A program made the position numbers and the translations under genes. This document shows, piece by piece, positions 1,954 to 58,300 of a stretch of DNA of 64,000 nt (the stretch's first letter is position 1; every line of letters begins with the position of its first letter). This DNA comes from Terriglobia bacterium (lineage in GTDB: Bacteria > Acidobacteriota > Terriglobia > JAIQFV01), in the NCBI GenBank assembly GCA_020072965.1, contig JAIQFY010000009.1, forward strand, positions 9,649 through 73,648, in the 5' to 3' direction. Below the pieces are notes generated by a model that did not search any database, was not told the DNA's origin, and saw nothing but the letters and a program-made list of their open reading frames with translations.

Positions 1954-4239
1954 ATGAAGTTACTCAAAGGGATTTCTCTTGCGATTATTTTGCTCGGACC
2001 GGCCTCAGTCTTCTATTTTTCCCAGGAAGCCGAGGATCGGACACTTCTCTCCTGGCCGATCGTTCAGAAGATTGTGGACGAAGCCTCCGGGGACCGTGCT
2101 ATGCATACCCTTCTCGAAATTGCCCCATACCCCAGGCACCGCAGCAAAGAAGAGTATGAAAACAAATTCGCAGAGAGCGCTTACATTGAGCGAAAGGTTA
2201 GGGAATCCGGACTCGACGCAGTTTCCGTGGAGCGCTTTTCACCGGGAGGAGGCCCGGGGGGTGGAAGAGGAGACGGTGGAAACACACAGGCGCCCGCAAA
2301 TCCGTTTGCGGGGAAAGCATGGGAAGGTTCGACAGGCCAGCTCTGGATGGTGGAGCCCCGCCCTCATAAACTCCTCGACTATGCGGACGTTCCAACCATG
2401 CTCTGTGCGAACAGTGAAAATGGGGACTGGACAGCAGAGCTAATCGACGTTGGGGACGGGTCTCGCCCTGAAGATTACAAGGAAAAGGATATCAAAGGAA
2501 AAATCGTTCTCGGATCGGCCGGCCCCGGCGTGCTTCAGCGTATGGCGGTGTTTGAGCGGGATGCGATCGGGGTGATTTCGTACAATTCCTTGCGGCCGGA
2601 GTATGATGTCCAGCAGTCACTCTGGGAAAGCATTCAGCCCCAGCCTCCCAATCAACCCAGGTATGCGGGGAAGAAAGGAGGATTCGGGTTCAAGCTCAAT
2701 GCTGAGATGGGACACGGGCTGCGAACCCTGCTGGATCGAGGTACAAGAGTAAAGCTTCGGGCCGTCGTGCAGGCGGATTGGTATCCCAACACCATGGAAA
2801 CGGTGTTTGCCCGGATCGCAGGGGACGGATCGAGCGATCAGGAGATCATTCTCTCTGCACATCTCTACGAAGGCTACTTGAAACAAGGCGCCAACGATGA
2901 TGCCAGTGGCAGCGCTGCCATCCTCGAAGTGGCGCGAACACTGAACACTTTGATCCACAGTGGACAACTCCCCCGGCCCCGTCGAACCATCAATTTTCTA
3001 TGGGTGCCGGAAATCAGCGGTACCACGGCCTGGCTCCGCGCCCATGAGGAGATCCGCAAGAAACTCATCAACGACATCAATATGGACATGGTGGGGGAAG
3101 GACTACAGAAGAACAACGCCTCTTTTGTGCTGAGCCGGACGCCTGATACGACACCCAATTATCTGAACGATGTCATGCAGAGTGTTTTCGAGTTCATTGG
3201 AAACACCAACCGCGAACGGGTCCGCTATCGGGCCAACGGCTATGCCATGTCGTACCCAATCATTTCCTCAGTCGGTTCCGTCGAACCCTTCCACTTCAAT
3301 ATCGATAAACATTACGGGGCCTCGGACCATATCATTTACCTCAATAATGGAATCCCGGCTACGATGATGGGCGTGTGGCCGGACATGTGGTACCACTCCT
3401 CCGGCGATACTCCCGATAAGGCGGATCCCACTCAAATGAGACGCGCCGTGGTCCTCAGTGCCATGGGAGCTTACATCGTCGCTTCGGCGGACGATGCCGG
3501 GGCAGCCCGGATTGGCGCTGAGTCTCTGGCGAGAGGGGACGCCCGGATCGGCGACGCTCTTCGGAAGGGACTTGCTTATCTCGCCGATTGGAATTCAGAT
3601 CTGCTTCCCTCCGCCTACAAAGAAGCCATCAATACGGTCCGCCACCAGGGAAAGATCGAAAAAGGAACGATCGAGTCCTTGAAGATTCTGATGCCCCCTT
3701 CGATGACCGACATTGACAAGGGGAAAACCGTCGAACCGTTCCTTTCCCTCATCGATGAGAGAACCCGGGTGGCCGAGAAGGAGATCATGGAGTTTTATGT
3801 TGTCCGAACCAAACGGACTCCACCGGAGCTCACATTGACTGCGGAAGAGGCCAAGGCAGCGCGGTTGATCCCCGAGCGAACCGGAGGCCAGGGCGGGTTC
3901 GGAGGATTTGGAGGCGGGATCGCAAGGCTACTCGAGCAACAACCCGAAGCCGATCGTAAGGCCCTCGAGGAGGCGTTGAGAAAGGTTCCCCAGCACATGA
4001 CCGCGGAACTCAATGTGATGCTCACCCGAAACGGAAACAAGAATGATCCCCGCAAGTATTCGGTCCTGGATATCCGCGACTTTCTCTCGGGAGAATTTGA
4101 ACCGATCACCCTGGCTGACATGGTGACGTATTTCAATGCCCAGGAAAAACTCAAGGCGATCAAATTAATGGAAAGGGCGGAGGAACCAACGGCCCCGCCC
4201 CAAGGTCAGAAGGCTAAAGGGAAGAAGGCCAGAGCATAA
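1954..4239 (+). CDS. secreted M28-family zinc metallopeptidase with PA-like domain
   Basis: GGAGG ribosome-binding site 8 nt upstream. N-terminal signal peptide MKLLKGISLAIILLGPASVF. M28 metal-ligand motifs ANDDASGSAAILEVARTL and HSSGDTPDKADP. Gly-rich GGQGGFGGFGGG linker near the C-terminus. Confidence 0.8.
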   Translation: MKLLKGISLAIILLGPASVFYFSQEAEDRTLLSWPIVQKIVDEASGDRAMHTLLEIAPYPRHRSKEEYENKFAESAYIERKVRESGLDAVSVERFSPGGGPGGGRGDGGNTQAPANPFAGKAWEGSTGQLWMVEPRPHKLLDYADVPTMLCANSENGDWTAELIDVGDGSRPEDYKEKDIKGKIVLGSAGPGVLQRMAVFERDAIGVISYNSLRPEYDVQQSLWESIQPQPPNQPRYAGKKGGFGFKLNAEMGHGLRTLLDRGTRVKLRAVVQADWYPNTMETVFARIAGDGSSDQEIILSAHLYEGYLKQGANDDASGSAAILEVARTLNTLIHSGQLPRPRRTINFLWVPEISGTTAWLRAHEEIRKKLINDINMDMVGEGLQKNNASFVLSRTPDTTPNYLNDVMQSVFEFIGNTNRERVRYRANGYAMSYPIISSVGSVEPFHFNIDKHYGASDHIIYLNNGIPATMMGVWPDMWYHSSGDTPDKADPTQMRRAVVLSAMGAYIVASADDAGAARIGAESLARGDARIGDALRKGLAYLADWNSDLLPSAYKEAINTVRHQGKIEKGTIESLKILMPPSMTDIDKGKTVEPFLSLIDERTRVAEKEIMEFYVVRTKRTPPELTLTAEEAKAARLIPERTGGQGGFGGFGGGIARLLEQQPEADRKALEEALRKVPQHMTAELNVMLTRNGNKNDPRKYSVLDIRDFLSGEFEPITLADMVTYFNAQEKLKAIKLMERAEEPTAPPQGQKAKGKKARA

Positions 4240-4911: not shown

Positions 4912-6708
4912 TCAGGTAGCATTCATTGAATACTGGGTCTCCGCGTTTAAGTCCACCGGGATCAAGGGAAGGGTGATTCGGAAGGTGGCACCGCCTTTCA
5001 AATTATTCTCGGCGGTGATCTTCCCTCCGTAGTGCTGCAGGATGGAATGACTCACACTGAGCGCCATCCCTGTGCCCTTCCCCACTTCCTTCGTGGTGTA
5101 GAAGGGTTCGAAGATACGGTTGGGATCCTTGATTCCGGGTCCATCATCGGAAATGGACACGAACGTGTTGTCGCCATCTATCCCCGTCGTGATGGCGATG
5201 GTCCCGCCGTCTTTCACCTCACGGATGGCGTCCATGGCGTTTTTCAGGATGCTTTGGATCACTTGGACCAGGCGATCCCGATTGACATTGACCCACATGG
5301 GATCGTGTCCGAAGCGCAATTTTGTATTGATATGAAAGGTCTGAAAATCCTTTTCAAATGGACTTAAGGATTCCACGACGAGATCGTTGACCTCGATGGA
5401 TTCCACCGCATGCTCGGGAACCCGGACAAAGCTCTGGAGACTTTCGACAATCTTCTTTGAGCGCGCCGCCGCCTGGAGGATGCGGTCGAATCGCTGACGT
5501 AATTTCGGATCGAGCGCCTTATCCTGCAGCGAGAGTTCAGAAAATCCCATGACGGTTGTCAGCGGGTTGTTCAACTCGTGGGCCGCCCCCGAAATCATCT
5601 GGCCGAGAGCGATGAGTTTCTCAGCATGCTGAAGTTGCCGCTCCATGGTCTTCATTTCGGTCACATCGCGACCCACCGTGAGTACGCCTGAGACCTGGTT
5701 CTCGGCATCGCGTACGGGGGACATGGAGATTTGCATGGAGCAGAGCTTCCCCTGGGGTGCCTCAAGCTGAACTTCCAGAGACTGCGGCTTCCCTTGAAAC
5801 ACCAGGGCCGTCGCCAGTTCCACCAGGCCGCGATCCTTCCCCCGCAGGAACTCGCTATAGTTTTTTCCCTTCAGCTCCTCTGAAGTCAGGCCCAATCCTT
5901 GCTCACACTTCTTGTTGGCCCATTGAAATCGGCCATTCTGGCCGATTACAAAAATGGAATCATTTGCATTGTCTACCAGGCTTTGAATGAATTCATGTTG
6001 CCTCACGGCATCGTCCCGGTGTTGTTGCATTGCAATTTTTTCCCATTCGAAGAGGTGGATGAGCATGCCCACAGCGACCGCCAGTCGCGCAAAGTCAAGG
6101 AACTGGATAGTAAAGGGGAGGATGAAGTTCCACCTCAGTAGAGCGCCAAAAGCCATAAGGCCCAGTCCTATCATTAAGAAACCGCACGCGAGGATTTGAA
6201 TGCCAATGGAATGGGCCTTCCGTCCAGCTCGAAGAAACACTAACGCGGTGAAAAGAACCAGGATACCCAGCAACAGCCCGAACTCCGAGAAGCGGTAAGA
6301 AACCAGCACCATCCGGACGTTAGAAGCGGTATTGGAACCGACGAAATTAGGAGATGGAGCGGTCGCATGATAGATCTGGAAGTAGCTTGTGACGGTAAAA
6401 AGGCATCCGAGCGCTGCGATGAGAATCCGGGAGGTCCGCAGTCCTGCAAAGCTGCGTGCGCTGAGAAAGAACATGATGCCGGCAGATGCGAGCAGGACCC
6501 GGTCGATAAATATGACTGTGTGTGACCTCGCCGGATTGATCAGAACGGCGACTTGTGACAAATACTGAAGCGTCAGGAGAAGCCAACCCAGCGTCCAAAG
6601 CTTAAAGAATGTTTCGTGCAGCTCCCGCCGGGAAAATACAAGAAATACGACGGTAACCAGGACAATGGCCAGAAAAGTAGTCAGTGCGTCAGCGAGATAA
6701 AAGTCCAT
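4912..6708 (-). CDS. membrane-bound sensor histidine kinase (multi-TM N-terminus, PAS, HisKA, HATPase_c)
   Basis: N-terminal hydrophobic segments. PAS-like region (FVIGQNGRFQWANKKCEQGLG). H-box HELNNPLTTVMGFSELS. G-boxes DDGPGI and GTGMALSVSHSILQHYGG. Confidence 0.85.
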   Translation of the reverse strand: MDFYLADALTTFLAIVLVTVVFLVFSRRELHETFFKLWTLGWLLLTLQYLSQVAVLINPARSHTVIFIDRVLLASAGIMFFLSARSFAGLRTSRILIAALGCLFTVTSYFQIYHATAPSPNFVGSNTASNVRMVLVSYRFSEFGLLLGILVLFTALVFLRAGRKAHSIGIQILACGFLMIGLGLMAFGALLRWNFILPFTIQFLDFARLAVAVGMLIHLFEWEKIAMQQHRDDAVRQHEFIQSLVDNANDSIFVIGQNGRFQWANKKCEQGLGLTSEELKGKNYSEFLRGKDRGLVELATALVFQGKPQSLEVQLEAPQGKLCSMQISMSPVRDAENQVSGVLTVGRDVTEMKTMERQLQHAEKLIALGQMISGAAHELNNPLTTVMGFSELSLQDKALDPKLRQRFDRILQAAARSKKIVESLQSFVRVPEHAVESIEVNDLVVESLSPFEKDFQTFHINTKLRFGHDPMWVNVNRDRLVQVIQSILKNAMDAIREVKDGGTIAITTGIDGDNTFVSISDDGPGIKDPNRIFEPFYTTKEVGKGTGMALSVSHSILQHYGGKITAENNLKGGATFRITLPLIPVDLNAETQYSMNAT

Positions 6709-17541: not shown

Positions 17542-18342
17542 TTGGTCAACATGTCGAACCAAAGAGACTTCCTGTCAGCCATCGGAGAGCGCGTCCGTAA
17601 ATTGCGTCGCGCGCGCGGGTGGACCCAATCGCAACTGGCGGAGCGAGCCCAGCTTTCTCCCCGTTTTCTGGCCCAACTTGAGGCGGGAGATGGAAACATC
17701 TCCGTACTCCGTTTGGCGCAAGTGGCCGAGGCGTTGCACCAACCCTTGCGCGACCTGATCCCAAGTGTCTCCCTGACCGAAAGAAAGCCGGGCGGTCAAG
17801 TTCGTGGCCGCAAGCAGATCATCGCTTTGATTGGTCTCCGCGGAGCCGGAAAGACCAGTGTGGGCATTCAGTTGGCCGGACGACTCAAGCTGCCCTTCGT
17901 TGAATTGGACTCCCTCATTGAGAAAGCTGCGCTGATGCCACTGGCCCAGATCTTTTCTCTTCATGGAGAAGGCTACTATCGCCGGCTGGAGTATCAAACA
18001 TTGAAAGAGCTATTGCGGAATCCCAAGCCGATCGTACTCGCGACCGGGGGATCGCTCGTGACGGATCCGCGCACGTGGAGCCTCGTCAAGCAATCCTGCA
18101 CCTCGGTCTGGTTGAAGGCCACTCCCGAAGTTTATTGGAACCGCCTTCTCAAGCAAGGTGACACGCGGCCGATGAAGAACAACCCCTCCGCTATGACTGA
18201 GCTTCGTGCTCTGCTGGCGGCCAGGGAACCCCTCTACGGGCAGGCCGATCACATCATCGATACTTCGCGCCTCTCACTTGGTGAGGCTACGGAAGGCGCG
18301 CTTCACGCCCTTGGGATGGATGCGCTCAGTAAGGATGGATAG
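17542..18342 (+). CDS. boxR: BoxR/BzdR-family transcriptional regulator (N-terminal XRE HTH fused to shikimate-kinase-like effector domain)
   Basis: HTH block RKLRRARGWTQSQLAERAQLSPRFLAQLEAG. P-loop GLRGAGKTSVG and a shikimate-kinase fold. Divergent from boxCB. Confidence 0.8.
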   Translation: MVNMSNQRDFLSAIGERVRKLRRARGWTQSQLAERAQLSPRFLAQLEAGDGNISVLRLAQVAEALHQPLRDLIPSVSLTERKPGGQVRGRKQIIALIGLRGAGKTSVGIQLAGRLKLPFVELDSLIEKAALMPLAQIFSLHGEGYYRRLEYQTLKELLRNPKPIVLATGGSLVTDPRTWSLVKQSCTSVWLKATPEVYWNRLLKQGDTRPMKNNPSAMTELRALLAAREPLYGQADHIIDTSRLSLGEATEGALHALGMDALSKDG

Positions 18343-18575
18343 GGCGGGTGGACGGGGTGACGCACACATCGCGTTTTGTGTGATGTGTGCGAGTCATTAG
18401 ATTGAATGCAGTTCCGTCGTGGGTTCAGAAAGATGTCTCTGGAGATTCAAAGGAAACTGGTATAAGGAAATGAGTTGGTTCAGGAATGAAGGGCTTATGA
18501 CAAATGTTTCCCACAGAAGAAGGACCGCACACATGCCAAGAACGCCTATGTGCGCCACCCGGCCGATCCTACCGA
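18343..18575. repeat. copy A of a duplicated ~230-bp non-coding element (begins with hairpin CGCACACATCGCG..GATGTGTGCG and contains GATGTCTCTGGAGATTCAAAG)
   Basis: Aligns block-wise with 58075-58300. Shared hairpin, a shared 21-mer, and a shared ...CGCACACAYGC.AAGAAC.C.T.TGCGCCACCC segment. No conserved ORF between the copies. Confidence 0.5.
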
Positions 18576-18907
18576 CAAGCTGAGATGATATAACATGTTA
18601 TCGATGTGATTTCCCACACTCTTTTTGAGCTTCTTGTTATCTATTGCATCAATGGATTTCTTCGCAGGGAATGCAGGTTATTCTCCAACAACAGGCTTGG
18701 ACAGCAGTGGGGTGTATCTTATCGACTGGAATCCTCGAGACAAGCTCGGCGAGATGGCACGCGGAAAGGGAATCCATGACTCTGTTTGCCACATAGACCT
18801 GCTGAATGTGACAACCAAAACATGAGGGGTCAGGCACCACCATTCGACAATTGCGATAAAAAGAGAACGTAAGCTCGCTTGCTTCTCCCCTAAGAATTTG
18901 CTGAGTT

Positions 18908-19259
18908 GTCGAATGTCGGTGCCTGACCCGAATGGCGCTTAGACCCGAATGGCGCTTAGTTAAGAAATTGAGATGGAGATTGATCCGCTTCCCTGAAGGG
19001 GAAGTCTTCAATAGCCCAGGGTTGGCCGCCTTGCGGCCTACCCTGGGTGGGGATCGCCCGAAGAGAAGAAGGAACCCTGAAGGGGTTCCTTCCCCACGAG
19101 GATCTGGGTTCGATCCAGCCAAAATATGATCAAAGACTCCTCCGGCCCCCCCTGCGCGGTGACTGGGACTGTCATAAACCTGTTCTCTGGGATGGGGCTA
19201 GATCCGTTTTACCATTCTCTTAACTTAGCGCCATTCGGAGTCAGGCGCCGACATTCGAT
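18908..19259. mobile_element. MITE-like ~350-bp element with ~35-bp terminal inverted repeats and a highly structured interior
   Basis: Left end GTCGAATGTCGGTGCCTGACCCGAATGGCGCTTAG, followed by a duplicated ACCCGAATGGCGCTTAG. Right end CTAAGCGCCATTCGGAGTCAGGCGCCGACATTCGAT, its reverse complement. Interior hairpins: CTTCCCtgaaGGGGAAG, CCCAGGGT...ACCCTGGG, GGAACCCtgaaGGGGTTCC. Solo copies of the terminal-repeat core lie at 18826-18848 and 19949-19971. Confidence 0.45.
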
Positions 19260-19717
19260 TTTCCTGATGCAGCGTTCAATATTTCTTGAAGCTCCTCGAC
19301 GAGGGGATGGCGGGTAAACCCGTGAAAAAACCGAAAAGGCGGCATGAACACCACTTTCGTTCCGAACTCGGTGGGCCGTCGGAATCGGAGCCACATGAGC
19401 TCCGGGTTTACCAATAGACTCCCCGAGACCCGCTCAACGTCGCGGAGCGGCACCTCGATCTCGGTCTCGAAGTTGGAGATCAATAAAACGTCCCCACGAA
19501 GGCGAACTCGTTTGAGCCGCATGCAGGACCAGTAGAATAAAACGGTGCCGAAAACGGTCACGGCCAGGAAGACCCATCCAAGTTCTCGAAAATCTCTTAC
19601 TCCCCAGGAATTGGGCGCGATTATCATACTTAGCGAGATGGCGGCAAAACCACCGATCCATAGCGCTGGGAGTGCGAACTTGTAAAACCAAGTCCATTTA
19701 GACGAAAGGTCTCGCAT
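19241..19717 (-). CDS. hypothetical membrane protein
   Basis: 158-aa ORF with two or three hydrophobic helices (FYKFALPALWIGGFAAISLSMII and WVFLAVTVFGTVLFYW). Its 3' end overlaps the right end of the MITE-like element, so coding status is uncertain. Confidence 0.4.
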   Translation of the reverse strand: MRDLSSKWTWFYKFALPALWIGGFAAISLSMIIAPNSWGVRDFRELGWVFLAVTVFGTVLFYWSCMRLKRVRLRGDVLLISNFETEIEVPLRDVERVSGSLLVNPELMWLRFRRPTEFGTKVVFMPPFRFFHGFTRHPLVEELQEILNAASGKSNVGA

Positions 19718-19998
19718 AGTCTTCTTGTCGCCGACTAACTAATACAGGGAAAGATGAATTCTTTTCGGGTCAGATAACGACCTTAAATGATCCAACAAAT
19801 TTTTGATTGCCCCTTCAGGGCAAACCACGAATGAATGATGATCATCCCTCCCAGGGCGGCGCCCTGGGCTTTTGAAGGCCGCCCTTTCAGGGCAGGCGAA
19901 TAGGTATTGGCATCTCTGACACGGACAAGATCCGATAAAACATGGGGGGGCAGGCACCGACATTCCACGACTTCAGTCGTGCCTGCTCGGAACACCCC

Positions 19999-20031
19999 CC
20001 TCTTTCCCGGGCTTAAGCCCGGGAAAGAGGA
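19999..20031. repeat. perfect palindromic hairpin CCTCTTTCCCGGGCttaaGCCCGGGAAAGAGG
   Basis: Read from sequence. Lies in a repeat-rich intergenic zone next to hairpins sharing a CGACT-N3-AGTCG core. Confidence 0.4.
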
Positions 20032-20096
20032 AAATCCAAGAAGCCAGATTCGCCATCCTCGGCACGACTAAAGTCGTGCACTACCACCCGATCCCC

Positions 20097-20324: not shown

Positions 20325-20422
20325 GGGTGAGTGAATAGTTTGGCCGATTCGTTTCCGCGGGCTTCACTTGGGCCCTGAGCGTCGTTCTACAACGTAACGA
20401 CTGAAGTCGTTACTACGGGATC

Positions 20423-25533: not shown

Positions 25534-25969
25534 ATTAGGATGGATTTTGCAATTAAGAGAGTAAACAAAGCATCCCGCAGCGAGCGGGATACCTGTCCGC
25601 CCTCACGGGGATGGTTTGGAATTTCGGTTGAAGAATTCAAAAAATAGTGGCTGGCTTAGACCTGATTTCCGAATTTGCCAGCCATTCTCTTGTTCAGTTC
25701 GTTTGCATGGGGAAAGGTTGAAGTGATTCTGCCTTGGCACAAAGGGTGATGCCGCCCGCCAAGGCGGGCTGCGTGGTTGAAGGCTGGTGCCCTCCTGGGG
25801 CTCGCGCCCCAGGCTATTTCATTTCGCCGCTGTGCGGCTTTAAGTATGGATCCAACTCCGGAACGCGGGTTGAAATCCGAACACGCTTCGAACCCTTGAC
25901 TTCTCACCCTATGCCAATAATTAGCTGTCCCCCGTTGACGTGGTCTATACCTTGGCGCCGATTCCATTC

Positions 25970-45393: not shown

Positions 45394-45529
45394 GTCAGCC
45401 GGCGTCGGTCTTCACACCCTTCATTTCCAAGAATGTCAACCGCTCCGGAATGCCGGAGTGATTCTTATTTTTACCAGGATTCCTAAGTTGGCCCCTGTTT
45501 TAAGCCGCGCAGCGGCGAAATAAAGTAAC

Positions 45530-46262
45530 CTGGGGCGTGAGCCTCAGGACCGGGCGACAAGAATAGAATGACAGTCCGCCTTGGCGGACGAAAGAGCGCG
45601 ACAGGAGCGTGGATGCCAACCTAAATCAGTGTTACAATTCAGTGGCGTGATTCCCCCCAGAAGGTCTCAGTAAACCCACATCCCCCGAACAGAGGTCCTC
45701 ACATGGCCACGAGTTATACATCCCTGCGTTTTCACGTTCTCTTCAGTACCAAGAATCGTATGAGATGGATTACAAAAGAATGGGAAGAGGAGCCCTACTC
45801 CTACCTCGCGGGCATCCTTCGGGAAGAACGAGGCCGGCTTCTGAGGGGAACGGAATGGACGACCATGTTCATCTTCTCCTCGTGCTCAGGGCTGACCAGT
45901 CCCTCACCGAGATCATGCGGATCTTGAAATCAAATTCCTCGAGGTGGATTCATGAAAAATCGAGGGAGCGCTGGAGGTTTGAATGGCAACGTGGATATTT
46001 CGGGGTCACAGTGACCAAGTCCCAGGTGGAGCGAGTCCGGCAATACATCAAAAATCAAAAGCAGCACCACCAGCGAGTCAGTTTTCAGGAGGAATTTTTG
46101 AGGTTGCTCAAGGCACATCAAATTGAATTCGACGAACGTTATGTTTGGAAATAATGATCCGGGCATAACTGTCGTCCGCCAAGGCGGACTCAATCTTCTC
46201 CTATTGCACCGAAACCTGAGGCTCACGCCTCAGGCTACGAATAGGCCGTCCGCACAAGGCGG
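45530..46262. mobile_element. IS200/IS605-type (RAYT-like) element: tnpA flanked by inverted hairpin-containing ends
   Basis: Upstream GCGTGAGCCTCAGG...AGTCCGCCTTGGCGGACGAAAG. Downstream GTCGTCCGCCAAGGCGGACT...CCTGAGGCTCACGCC, its reverse complement. An extra GTCCGCACAAGGCGGAC hairpin lies at 46246. Confidence 0.5.
45703..46154 (+). pseudogene. tnpA: IS200/IS605-family Y1 (HuH) transposase TnpA, interrupted by an apparent frameshift near 45840-45860
   Basis: Frame 1 gives SLRFHVLFSTKNRMRWITKEWEEEPYSYLAGILREERG. Frame 2 gives GMDDHVHLLLVLRADQSLTEIMRILKSNSSRW...WQRGYFGVTVTKSQVERVRQYIKNQ, carrying the HuH and catalytic Tyr motifs. Together they cover a complete TnpA. Confidence 0.6.
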
Positions 46263-53996: not shown

Positions 53997-54294
53997 GGCA
54001 CATCCAAGAATAAAGGAGCAAGCCTTTCAGCCGGGACTTGCTGAAAGCTGATTGCTGATAGCTGATCGCTGACAGCTGTTCACTTCAAAAAAATACCCCA
54101 TGCATCTTCGTTGGAAAACGCACGGGGCAATAAACTTTGTCCACGGGCCCTTTGACGCGAAGAGCACAACTTTGGAGTCGTGAACCTGAAGGAACAAAGC
54201 CGTTGAGCATCGCTATGGATGCCAGTCCTTCGGCTTCAATCCCTGGGTTTCGCTGGTTCCAGGCAGGTCTCCTGACTTGACCACTCTCGGTTGC

Positions 54295-54445
54295 GTTCTC
54301 GCCTTCCCATCCCGCTGAAGCGGGGCAGTGGTTTTGAACCCGGAAGCGTGGTCTCACAGTGGCGCGACCGTCGCCGACTTTCACGGCGTTCCCTTTTTGA
54401 CTCCGACCTTTCGGAGTGCCTGAAACCGCTGAGAAAGATCACAGT
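54295..54445 (-). ncRNA. cobalamin (B12) riboswitch leading the btuF-permease-ATPase-TonB-receptor operon
   Basis: Minus-strand RNA contains GGGAAcgccGTGaAAgTCggcgacgGTCGCGCCACTGTGA. This matches the GGGAAnnnGGTGnAAnTCC...CCCGCnACTGT core. Further 3' it contains CCACTG...GGGAAGGC (B12 box and 3' element). Position is appropriate for a B12-uptake operon. Confidence 0.5.
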
Positions 54446-58047: not shown

Positions 58048-58074
58048 CGTCAAGCTGCGTGTGTAAAATCACCT

Positions 58075-58300
58075 GGGGCGGGGTGGCGCACACATCGCGT
58101 TGGATGCGATGTGTGCGAGTCATCTGAGGAAGGGAGTTCCACTGCCGGTTTAGAACGATGTCTCTGGAGATTCAAAGAAAATGGCTCCATCGAGATGAGT
58201 TGCTGTTGGGACGAAATGATTCACGTTAAATGTCTGCCAAAAAAAAGAAACGCACACACGCAAAGAACACGTGTATGCGCCACCCAGCCCATATGGCACT
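58075..58300. repeat. copy B of the duplicated ~230-bp non-coding element (see 18343-18575)
   Basis: Shares the CGCACACATCGCG..GATGTGTGCGAGTCAT hairpin, GATGTCTCTGGAGATTCAAAG, and the ...TGCGCCACCC segment with copy A. Lies directly after a gene stop, as copy A does. Confidence 0.5.

Follow-up and report, generated by a model that had tools for sequence, protein, structure and literature searches.

We report here a small mobile element, designated MITE-A, in a 64,000-nt stretch of chromosomal DNA (the window) from an uncultured soil bacterium of the Terriglobia (Acidobacteriia). It is probable that positions 18947-19236 of the window are one copy of a 290-bp miniature inverted-repeat transposable element (MITE), and that this MITE arose by deletion from an insertion sequence of subgroup IS4 in the IS4 family. 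A preliminary description, made from the letters of the window, had placed a MITE-like element with 35-bp terminal inverted repeats at 18908-19259 and had read further copies of the repeat end on either side as its solo ends. Its general idea is partly supported by our analysis: a non-autonomous transposable element does exist, but within narrower limits, and the anatomy is different, with an IS4-type MITE lying between the ends of a second, lineage-restricted repeat family.

The limits of MITE-A were set by comparison with its other copies. Interior copies were found by translating spurious open reading frames (ORFs) and searching protein collections, which also contain mis-called ORFs. The translated interior matched a protein (P0161) encoded on contig k141_593211, which comes from the same sample as the window contig and is called L164 here (the contigs or loci compared are numbered from L001 onward). 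Two copies lie on L164: c1 at 6105-6398 (294 bp, 92.2% identical to the window copy), flanked on either side by AAGCCTGACCC (11 of 11 positions), and c2 at 1740-2029 (290 bp, 85.7% identical), flanked by AGACCCGACCC and AGACCTGACCC (10 of 11). Similarity between the window and L164 copies ends exactly at GAATGGCGCT... and ...AGCGCCATTC (GAATGG.../...CCATTC), and relative to the L164 copies the window copy lies on the minus strand. These three DNA copies stand in different gene contexts, and a further protein, P0162, implies a fourth copy because it has 94% amino acid identity but a different flank. The element is small, contains no transposase gene and has a non-coding, hairpin-rich interior, whose ORFs show no coding signature in codon-position GC and no Pfam match. 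From the shared sample and the shared repeat families, we infer that L164 and the window belong to one genome.

The ends of the element provide the link to IS4. The terminal repeats are about 24 bp long and imperfect (GAATGGCGCTWAGTTAAGARAWTG); they start GAATGGCGCTWAGTTAAGA..., and the true end can be given as GAATGGCGCTWAGTTAAG. The left repeat, GAATGGCGCTTAGTTAAGAAATTG (18947-18970, plus strand), matches the other end at 20 of its first 24 positions, while the right repeat, GAATGGCGCTAAGTTAAGAGAATG as its reverse complement (19213-19236, minus strand), shares 22 identical nt with the equivalent ends of c1 and c2; the two ends agree at 20 to 22 of the first 24 positions in every one of the three copies. 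For subgroup IS4, the survey by De Palmenaer, Siguier and Mahillon (2008; PMC2266710) gives insertion sequences of 1400-1650 bp with a DDE/YREK transposase and its Y(2)R(3)E(6)K motif, terminal bases -AATR--------WTW----, direct repeats of 10-13 bp and, in some members, striking target specificity. The MITE-A end, G-AATG-GCGCTAAG-TTA-AGAG, fits this subgroup signature exactly in all copies, with the termini set by the duplications, and the 11-bp duplications at both L164 copies fall inside the published range. In Escherichia coli K-12, the ends of IS4 are TAATGCCAGTCAGTTAAGCAAC and TAATGCCGATCAGTTAAGGATC (RefSeq record), with a 12-bp duplication flanking that copy, and the right end of MITE-A matches the IS4 end at 14 of 22 positions (TAATGCCGATCAGTTAAGGATC versus GAATGGCGCTAAGTTAAGAGAA), AGTTAAG included. 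On the strength of these ends, MITE-A would have derived from a subgroup-IS4 insertion sequence and would have been moved by the transposase of that element, with the DDE transposase of the parent acting in trans by cut-and-paste transposition and cuts staggered by 11 bp.

Everything that the preliminary description had listed (inverted repeats, solo copies, hairpins and the AAAACATGRGGGG prefix) was found at the place given and lies far beyond chance. Within the window, the 19-mer core TCGAATGTCGGTGCCTGAC occurs four times at up to two mismatches (18829-18847, minus; 18909-18927, plus; 19240-19258, minus; 19949-19967, minus); 0.02 occurrences are expected from shuffles, and four copies were reached in none of 100 shuffles. 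The inverted arms (18909-18939 versus 19258-19227) pair at 94% over 32 nt with one gap, with pairing extending to about 45 nt, and the upstream solo copy pairs with the left arm at 92% over 24 nt (18827-18850 with 18906-18929). The prefix AAAACATGRGGGG is present in the window only at 18817 and 19937, directly ahead of both solo copies, the two tgaa-loop hairpins lie at about 18988-19004 and 19073-19091, and the T-loop-like motif GGTTCGATCC lies at 19108-19117. What changes is the assignment of these parts. Only the inner 14-16 nt of the claimed 35-bp terminal repeat are the MITE-A inverted repeat; the outer 19-21 nt are a second repeat, and the apparent inverted repeat of 35-45 bp is therefore a composite of a second-family repeat and a MITE end. 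The solo copies, likewise, are not ends of the same element but copies of this distinct dispersed repeat, GGGTCAGGCACCGACATTCGA.

This 21-nt repeat is present in the window in five copies, M1 to M5. M1 (GGAGTCAGGCGCCGACATTCGA, 19237-19258, plus strand) is the outer part of the right repeat as first noted and, on the minus strand, encodes the residues KSNVGA and the stop codon of a gene for a 158-amino-acid (aa) protein. M2 (18909-18929, minus strand), a perfect copy of GGGTCAGGCACCGACATTCGA, is the outer part of the left one. M3 (18827-18847, plus strand), the upstream solo copy, makes with M2 an inverted pair of 103 bp (18827-18929) whose GGG ends face outward, and M4 (19947-19967, plus strand), the downstream solo copy, has AAAACATGGGG directly ahead of it and has orthologues with the same prefix at L006 15-35 and L156 1988-2008. 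The decayed M5 (GGGTCAGATAACGACCTTAAA, 19767-19787, plus strand) had been overlooked; it has seven changes from the repeat consensus and is orthologous to better-kept copies at L003 9931-9951 and L156 1807-1827. The M3/M2 pair, which folds on the minus strand with -52 kcal/mol (z = -5.7), resembles a small MITE of the second family, and a similar 60-bp inverted pair forms a hairpin at L029 208-265.

The 21-nt repeat is scattered, in few copies, through this Terriglobia lineage, and 21-mers identical to M2 occur at unrelated loci of a related metagenome-assembled genome (MAG; L090 and L102). When the 17-mer GAATGTCGGYGCCTGAC was scanned against the contigs of 185,579 representative genomes, which do not include the source genome, 107 matches were obtained against a rough estimate of about 140 by chance. 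Five of the matches are real, and all lie in two related Terriglobia MAGs, on three contigs of OBJ2_061818_110_62 and two contigs of MFD05911. In the related MAGs the repeat occurs solo (L048, L102, L090), as a direct pair around a BrnT/BrnA operon (L113) and as an inverted pair (L029). A metagenome scan (JGI) with GGTCAGGCRCCGACATTC gave 38 matches, nearly all of them chance matches in coding sequence, of which L122, L133 and L151 may be real, and a scan of viral contigs gave two chance matches in coding sequence only and no link to phages. Orthologous copies of the repeat decay about as fast as their surroundings, which agrees better with remnants of mobile DNA than with a site kept for its function. 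Around the limits first noted, the 18827-18929 pair, the L029 pair and the edges of the whole gap, no target-site duplication above 3-5 nt was found.

The orientation of this second family also differs from what had been assumed. The preliminary description took the TCGA end as the outward one, but the family's own elements have the GGG end outward. At L090, L113 and two L164 sites, the TCGA side runs into a conserved ...ATCCACAGATTTCGCGGATG tract, and this tract, together with the outward GGG ends of the inverted pairs (window 18827-18929 and L029), points to the GGG end, and not the TCGA end, as the putative terminus. The GGGTCAGG-ended family has a second form, a palindromic element of 80 bp with ends GGGTCAGGTCTAAATTTTCAATTG, which is present in full at L164 345-424 and 4058-4137; the c2 target in its end gives a self-match of 96% over 25 nt. 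These GGGTCAGG-ended repeats make up a second family of small elements, one restricted to this lineage.

Several known classes of repeat were considered for the 21-nt repeat and set aside. Repetitive extragenic palindromic (REP) sequences and REPINs are defined as short palindromes that are GTAG- or CGTC-tagged and mobilised by RAYT, the REP-associated tyrosine transposase (PMC3733652); GGGTCAGGCACCGACATTCGA has no internal dyad and no GTAG/CGTC tag, and its inverted pairs are REPIN-like in outline only. A sigma-54 promoter would have GC at -12, a dif/Xer site a dyad and an attC site a GTTRRRY core, all of which are missing from the repeat, and as a 38-bp Tn3-type end it would have the wrong spacing to a TAAG-like inner end. 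Nor is the variable gap described below an integron cassette array: its repeat ends have no RYYYAAC...GTTRRRY cores, the orientation of its cargo is mixed, and the scanned or called genes of the window contain no integrase domain. At L102 in a related MAG (5289-5362 and 5529-6242), a copy of the 21-nt repeat stands 165 nt beyond a tRNA gene, on its 3′ side, and immediately beside a truncated ORF for an IS256-like transposase, marking a further junction of variable DNA; as a partner of the repeat this fragment was rejected, being truncated and having no matching inverted copy. BrnT/BrnA pairs that are dissimilar at the DNA level adjoin copies of the repeat at L156 2048-2597 and L113 1268-1852.

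The segment lies in an 898-bp gap between convergent genes, namely a boxR/bzdR-like gene for a regulator with helix-turn-helix and shikimate kinase parts (17551-18342, plus strand) on one flank and the gene for the 158-aa hypothetical protein (19241-19717, minus strand) on the other. The latter protein has 40 homologues and no Pfam family, its gene ends at its 3′ side in M1, and its C-terminal tail KSNVGA varies among the homologues. A second gap (19718-20096) separates this gene from a ferredoxin gene and cstA. Homologues of the regulator and of the 158-aa protein gave access to the orthologous loci. In two of these, L003 (90% aa identity) and L006, TCGAATGTCGGTGCC(T/C)GAC stands at the same place and forms the last codons of the gene; both loci keep the gene and M1 and have nothing that matches 18562-19233. 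Because these relatives have the repeat but no MITE, the right outer repeat (19237-19258) predates the insertion and represents the ancestral 3′ end of the 158-aa gene. The presence/absence difference among relatives that the preliminary description had envisaged is borne out by the size of the orthologous gap, which measures 229 bp in L003 and some 200 bp in L006, versus 898 bp in the window. Its alternative outcome, repeats that are unique to this locus and relatives that show no such variation, does not hold, as the repeats occur elsewhere and the relatives are polymorphic.

Seen more widely, a variable region of 1.5 kb (18562-20058) extends from a conserved element of about 210 nt after the boxR/bzdR-like gene to a REP-like hairpin by the ferredoxin gene. 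Its place is taken by 9 nt in L152/L153 and by one extra hairpin in L154/L155 (all four being empty sites as regards the MITE), by a unit of 21-nt repeat, hairpin, Acido-Lenti-1 motif and 21-nt repeat (unit U) together with BrnTA in L156, and by the 158-aa gene with different small repeats in L003, L006 and L158/L005. The 158-aa gene itself is missing from the site in L152 and L154 and has BrnTA in its place in L156, and more distant homologues of it stand in unrelated contexts with no repeat. The gap thus forms a mosaic of nested small repeats and small cargo genes, as described for other bacteria. Two further origins for parts of it were tried and rejected: 18562-18826 (265 nt) as a gene remnant, since it has no coding signature, no Pfam match and no similarity to the compared loci, and shared ancestry of the MITE interior with the sequence that follows the orthologous gene in L005/L158, for which the local alignment score was at shuffle level.

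The three copies of MITE-A share a target. Each of them sits exactly where a repeat end, beginning GGGTCAGG on the other strand, has its outer (GGG) boundary, so that the targets read ...CCTGACCC followed directly by the MITE. The target of c1 is a diverged 21-nt repeat (19 of 24 flank positions equal the repeat consensus by manual count), that of c2 is a solo end of the 80-bp palindromic element, and that of the window copy is M1, the repeat copy at the gene end. Insertion would duplicate the last 11 nt of the target repeat, and M1 already provided the last six codons and the stop of the 158-aa gene when MITE-A landed. The orientation of MITE-A relative to its target is the same in all three copies, a number too small for significance.

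The window copy has a more complicated history. Target-site duplications, a sign of mobility named in the preliminary description, are present as 11 bp at the two L164 copies, but no direct duplication is found at the window copy, which is flanked on the left by M2 in reverse orientation, followed by a duplicated 17-bp junction, and on the right by M1 in forward orientation. The duplicated junction is a perfect tandem repeat of GACCCGAATGGCGCTTA in the left arm (18925-18941 and 18942-18958, plus strand) that spans the boundary of M2 and the MITE end, and the L164 copies have no such duplication. Both junctions of the window copy resemble the usual junction of repeat end and MITE end. Because the flanks are inverted, the direct duplication is missing and the 17-bp junction is duplicated, at least one local rearrangement must have followed the insertion, to judge from the present arrangement. 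MITE-A may have inserted into M1 where this abutted M2, with subsequent loss of the duplicated 11 nt from the resulting short palindrome, or two MITE-A copies that had landed in M1 and M2 may have recombined with each other.

Compared with shuffles, 18800-19270 folds with z = -10.2 on the plus strand and z = -9.1 on the minus strand. The alternative of the preliminary description, a structured RNA gene, found no more than a sub-threshold resemblance within the element: a pair of hairpins like those of the Acido-Lenti-1 RNA motif (Rfam RF01687; Weinberg et al. 2010, PMC2864571) at 18989-19047 on the minus strand, with the first hairpin enlarged by 17 nt, reaches 19.9 bits (E = 0.14), where Rfam sets a gathering score of 37. 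The pair is conserved in both L164 copies and exists in a free-standing version at L164 8410-8468 (24.5 bits); it is a resemblance and no membership of RF01687. Outside MITE-A, between M5 and M4, an Acido-Lenti-1 RNA motif at 19850-19894 (plus strand) reaches 38.2 bits against the same gathering score. Together with a GCCCCTTCAGGGC hairpin it makes up unit U (19764-19967), which is about 200 bp long and bracketed by two direct 21-nt repeats; the unit is conserved at L156 1804-2006 (86%), with a related stretch at L003 9823-9955. Other Acido-Lenti-1 copies in the window (25794-25839, plus strand, and 45503-45548, minus strand) lie above the gathering score, have no 21-nt repeat and each have a CCGCCAAGGCGG hairpin about 25 nt upstream. 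A tRNA or tmRNA relic was rejected as the source of GGTTCGATCC, as ARAGORN and Rfam gave no tRNA or tmRNA match, the stem has 4 bp and the loop GUUCGAU is out of T-loop register.

For the host, the likely consequence is that the transcript of the 158-aa gene runs into MITE-A and thereby acquires some 400 nt of highly structured 3′ sequence. On the strand of this gene, the M2/M3 hairpin is followed by CUCAUGUUUUGG, and a similar hairpin stands ahead of CAUGUUUUAUC at 19937-19998. The M2/M3 hairpin could act as a terminator, and the conserved AAAACATG prefix may be the U-tract of such a terminator.

A number of observations weigh against these interpretations. The link to IS4 consists of about 20 nt of end sequence and the length of the duplication, with no protein behind it. 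No transposase or integrase domain was found in the Pfam-scanned window ORFs of at least 180 aa, no transposase is among the genes called on L001 or L164/L165, and the window and the compared loci contain no autonomous partner with MITE-A ends, although no scan was aimed at the true ends. MITE-A has been seen as DNA in three copies only, the fourth being deduced from a protein, and L164 comes from the same sample, which does not prove the same genome. With no direct target-site duplication at the window copy, transposition to this very spot is deduced from the other copies. The copies differ from one another by 8-14%, because of which the family may no longer be active. Finally, a simple consensus terminator scan flagged neither of the two hairpin sites proposed above.

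Three other explanations of the segment were weighed. It might be mainly a structured non-coding RNA gene or a functional 3′ untranslated domain, with the repeats as structural helices, which we consider unlikely. The very stable folding on both strands (z about -10 and -9) would agree with such a role, as would the Acido-Lenti-1-like hairpin pair inside, the position immediately 3′ of a gene, on the strand expected to be transcribed, and the changes read from the alignment in c2, where one C-G pair has become U-A and the inner hairpin, although remodelled, persists. Inverted repeats in DNA, however, give equal stability on both strands; no Rfam family reaches its gathering score within 18900-19240, no tRNA or tmRNA was found, and a consensus scan shows no promoter or terminator. 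Moreover, the copies stand in unrelated contexts with target duplications, as mobile DNA behaves, and the region is missing from the orthologous loci of close relatives. The mobile unit as first drawn, comprising the whole of 18908-19259 with terminal repeats of 35-45 bp and with 18826-18848 and 19949-19971 as solo ends of the same element, seems to us very unlikely. Its arms do pair over about 45 nt at some 90% identity, and the outer 10 nt of the 21-nt repeat (GAATGTCGGT) match the true MITE end (GAATGGCGCT) at 8 of 10 positions, which makes recognition by a shared transposase conceivable. Yet the other two copies end at GAATGG.../...CCATTC with direct, not inverted, flanks, the right outer arm is found at the same gene end in relatives without the element, and no target-site duplication surrounds 18909-19258; in addition, the sequence conserved past the TCGA side in four places and the pairs with GGG outward mark the GGG end as the terminus.

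Hardest of all to credit is an explanation in which the 21-nt repeat is a recombination site and the gap an array of small exchanged cassettes (the 158-aa gene, the Acido-Lenti-1 unit and, in relatives, BrnTA), moved by site-specific or short-homology recombination, with the inverted structure as a by-product. Direct copies of the repeat bracket the 158-aa gene (M1 to M5), unit U (M5 to M4) and the BrnT/BrnA pair in L113, relatives have other cargo or none at this site, and homologues of the 158-aa gene occur in unrelated contexts, all as this explanation would have it. The cargo, however, has no consistent orientation, as the gene is antisense to the repeat in the window and the genes are co-directional with it in L113, and BrnTA in L156 has the repeat on one side only and truncates a neighbouring module by its insertion. 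No recombinase is present among the scanned ORFs or called genes of the window or the related loci, the copies decay at a roughly neutral rate (M5), and the repeat does not have the dyad symmetry typical of tyrosine recombinase core sites. A subgroup-IS4 MITE inserted at the end of a second-family repeat remains the explanation that we prefer.

The surroundings of the element contain further features. The window sequence equals that of European Nucleotide Archive contig ERZ27247940:k141_599397 save for one homopolymer base, and the 158-aa protein is identical to one NCBI MAG protein; the Pfam-scanned ORFs of the window, like the genes called on L001, encode ordinary metabolic and housekeeping functions. 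A contig from a second sample (L002, ERZ27248265) is otherwise identical and stops at window position 18873, inside the loop of the M3/M2 hairpin, which may reflect strain-level structural variation at this spot. A cobalamin riboswitch (54245-54438, minus strand, 99 bits) lies in an ordinary arrangement upstream of a cluster for a TonB receptor, an ABC transporter and a periplasmic binding protein.

The conserved element of about 210 nt (window 18352-18562, plus strand), which is non-coding and stands behind the boxR/bzdR-like gene in all syntenic relatives, has a second copy 40 kb away in the window (58072-58283, plus strand, 79% identical) and is also found at L152 4767-5107 (as a tandem pair), L164 ~4145-4217 and L113 1928-1968. 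Its ends pair over 12 bp (GGTGGCGCACAC...GTGTGCGCCACC), where one C-G pair is replaced by U-A in a compensatory change, and its core, GGGTTCAGAACGATG..GAGATTCAAAGGAAA, is invariant. The element, for which Rfam gave no match, is a further MITE or else a structured RNA not yet described. REP-like hairpins of the form (TG)CACGACTNNAGTCGTG(C) lie at 19966-19981, 20063-20078 and 20396-20411, and a GTAG tag stands beside the hairpin stem in the copies at window 20059-20085 and in L006. Two such hairpins around a perfect 32-bp palindrome (19999-20030) make up a 127-nt module (19966-20091). Since L006 carries this module (608-733, 86% identical) on the opposite side of the 158-aa gene, the module has moved too. 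Also in L006, a tandem duplication, TACCGGGGTC-CAT-TACCGGGGTC, is found at about 556-585, directly beside the gene-end repeat; it could be the footprint of an excised element, an uncertain reading given its offset of 5-6 nt from the usual insertion point of MITE-A.

Our findings give the correct limits of a previously undescribed MITE of uncultured Terriglobia, and they illustrate that two nested repeat families can together look like one long terminal repeat, which calls for caution with automated MITE callers. They also single out a fast-changing spot within an otherwise conserved benzoyl-CoA gene cluster, the gap from the boxR/bzdR-like regulator to the ferredoxin/CstA genes. The current understanding of transposons is left unchanged, as MITE-A is ordinary selfish DNA of a familiar type. 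We would nevertheless put forward, as a tentative and rather doubtful speculation, that MITE-A and its presumed IS4-like parent home specifically to the outer 11 nt of GGGTCAGG-ended repeats, which would serve as landing pads and guide insertions to harmless sites directly behind genes, and that the Acido-Lenti-1-type hairpin pair, at present listed as a candidate small RNA, is at least in part a module spread by such mobile repeats and not a free-standing RNA gene. If confirmed on more copies, a fixed point of insertion at GGGTCAGG ends would clearly exemplify how one family of small repeats targets another, and the carried hairpin module would bear on the true nature of the Acido-Lenti-1 motif.

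Among known systems, the closest is IS4 with its subgroup, with which MITE-A shares the end signature, 14 of 22 end positions, a duplication length within the subgroup range and a strong target preference; unlike IS4 elements, it measures 290 bp with no transposase gene, its host is an uncultured member of the Terriglobia, and its cognate autonomous element was not found. A second parallel is MIC231 of Bacillus cereus, a mobile insertion cassette derived from IS231 of the IS4 family that often carries passenger genes; it belongs to subgroup IS231, whose ends begin with CAT. Like MIC231, MITE-A keeps just the ends of an IS4-family element and is presumed to be mobilised in trans, but its ends are those of subgroup IS4 and its cargo consists of hairpins only. 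In one table of the IS4 family survey, the row that is apparently that of subgroup IS231 gives a duplication of 10-12 bp (PMC2266710). The hairpin module resembles the Acido-Lenti-1 motif in having two hairpins and a linker of the CUAUUGAAG type, and it departs from that motif in its first hairpin, enlarged by 17 nt, and its sub-threshold score.

Insertion of one repeat into another has precedents as well, as IS1397/ISKpn1 and several IS110-family elements insert into REP/BIME (bacterial interspersed mosaic element) sequences. In both cases one repeat family inserts at a fixed position in another, but here the target is a non-palindromic 21-nt end and no GTAG/CGTC-tagged palindrome, and the inserting unit is a MITE with IS4-like ends and not an element of the IS3 or IS110 family. 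Mosaic intergenic regions of interleaved repeat families have been mentioned for Neisseria (PMC3733652), and the region studied here is like them in that its repeats are nested near gene 3′ ends, where they can overlap the ends of coding sequences and supply their stop codons.

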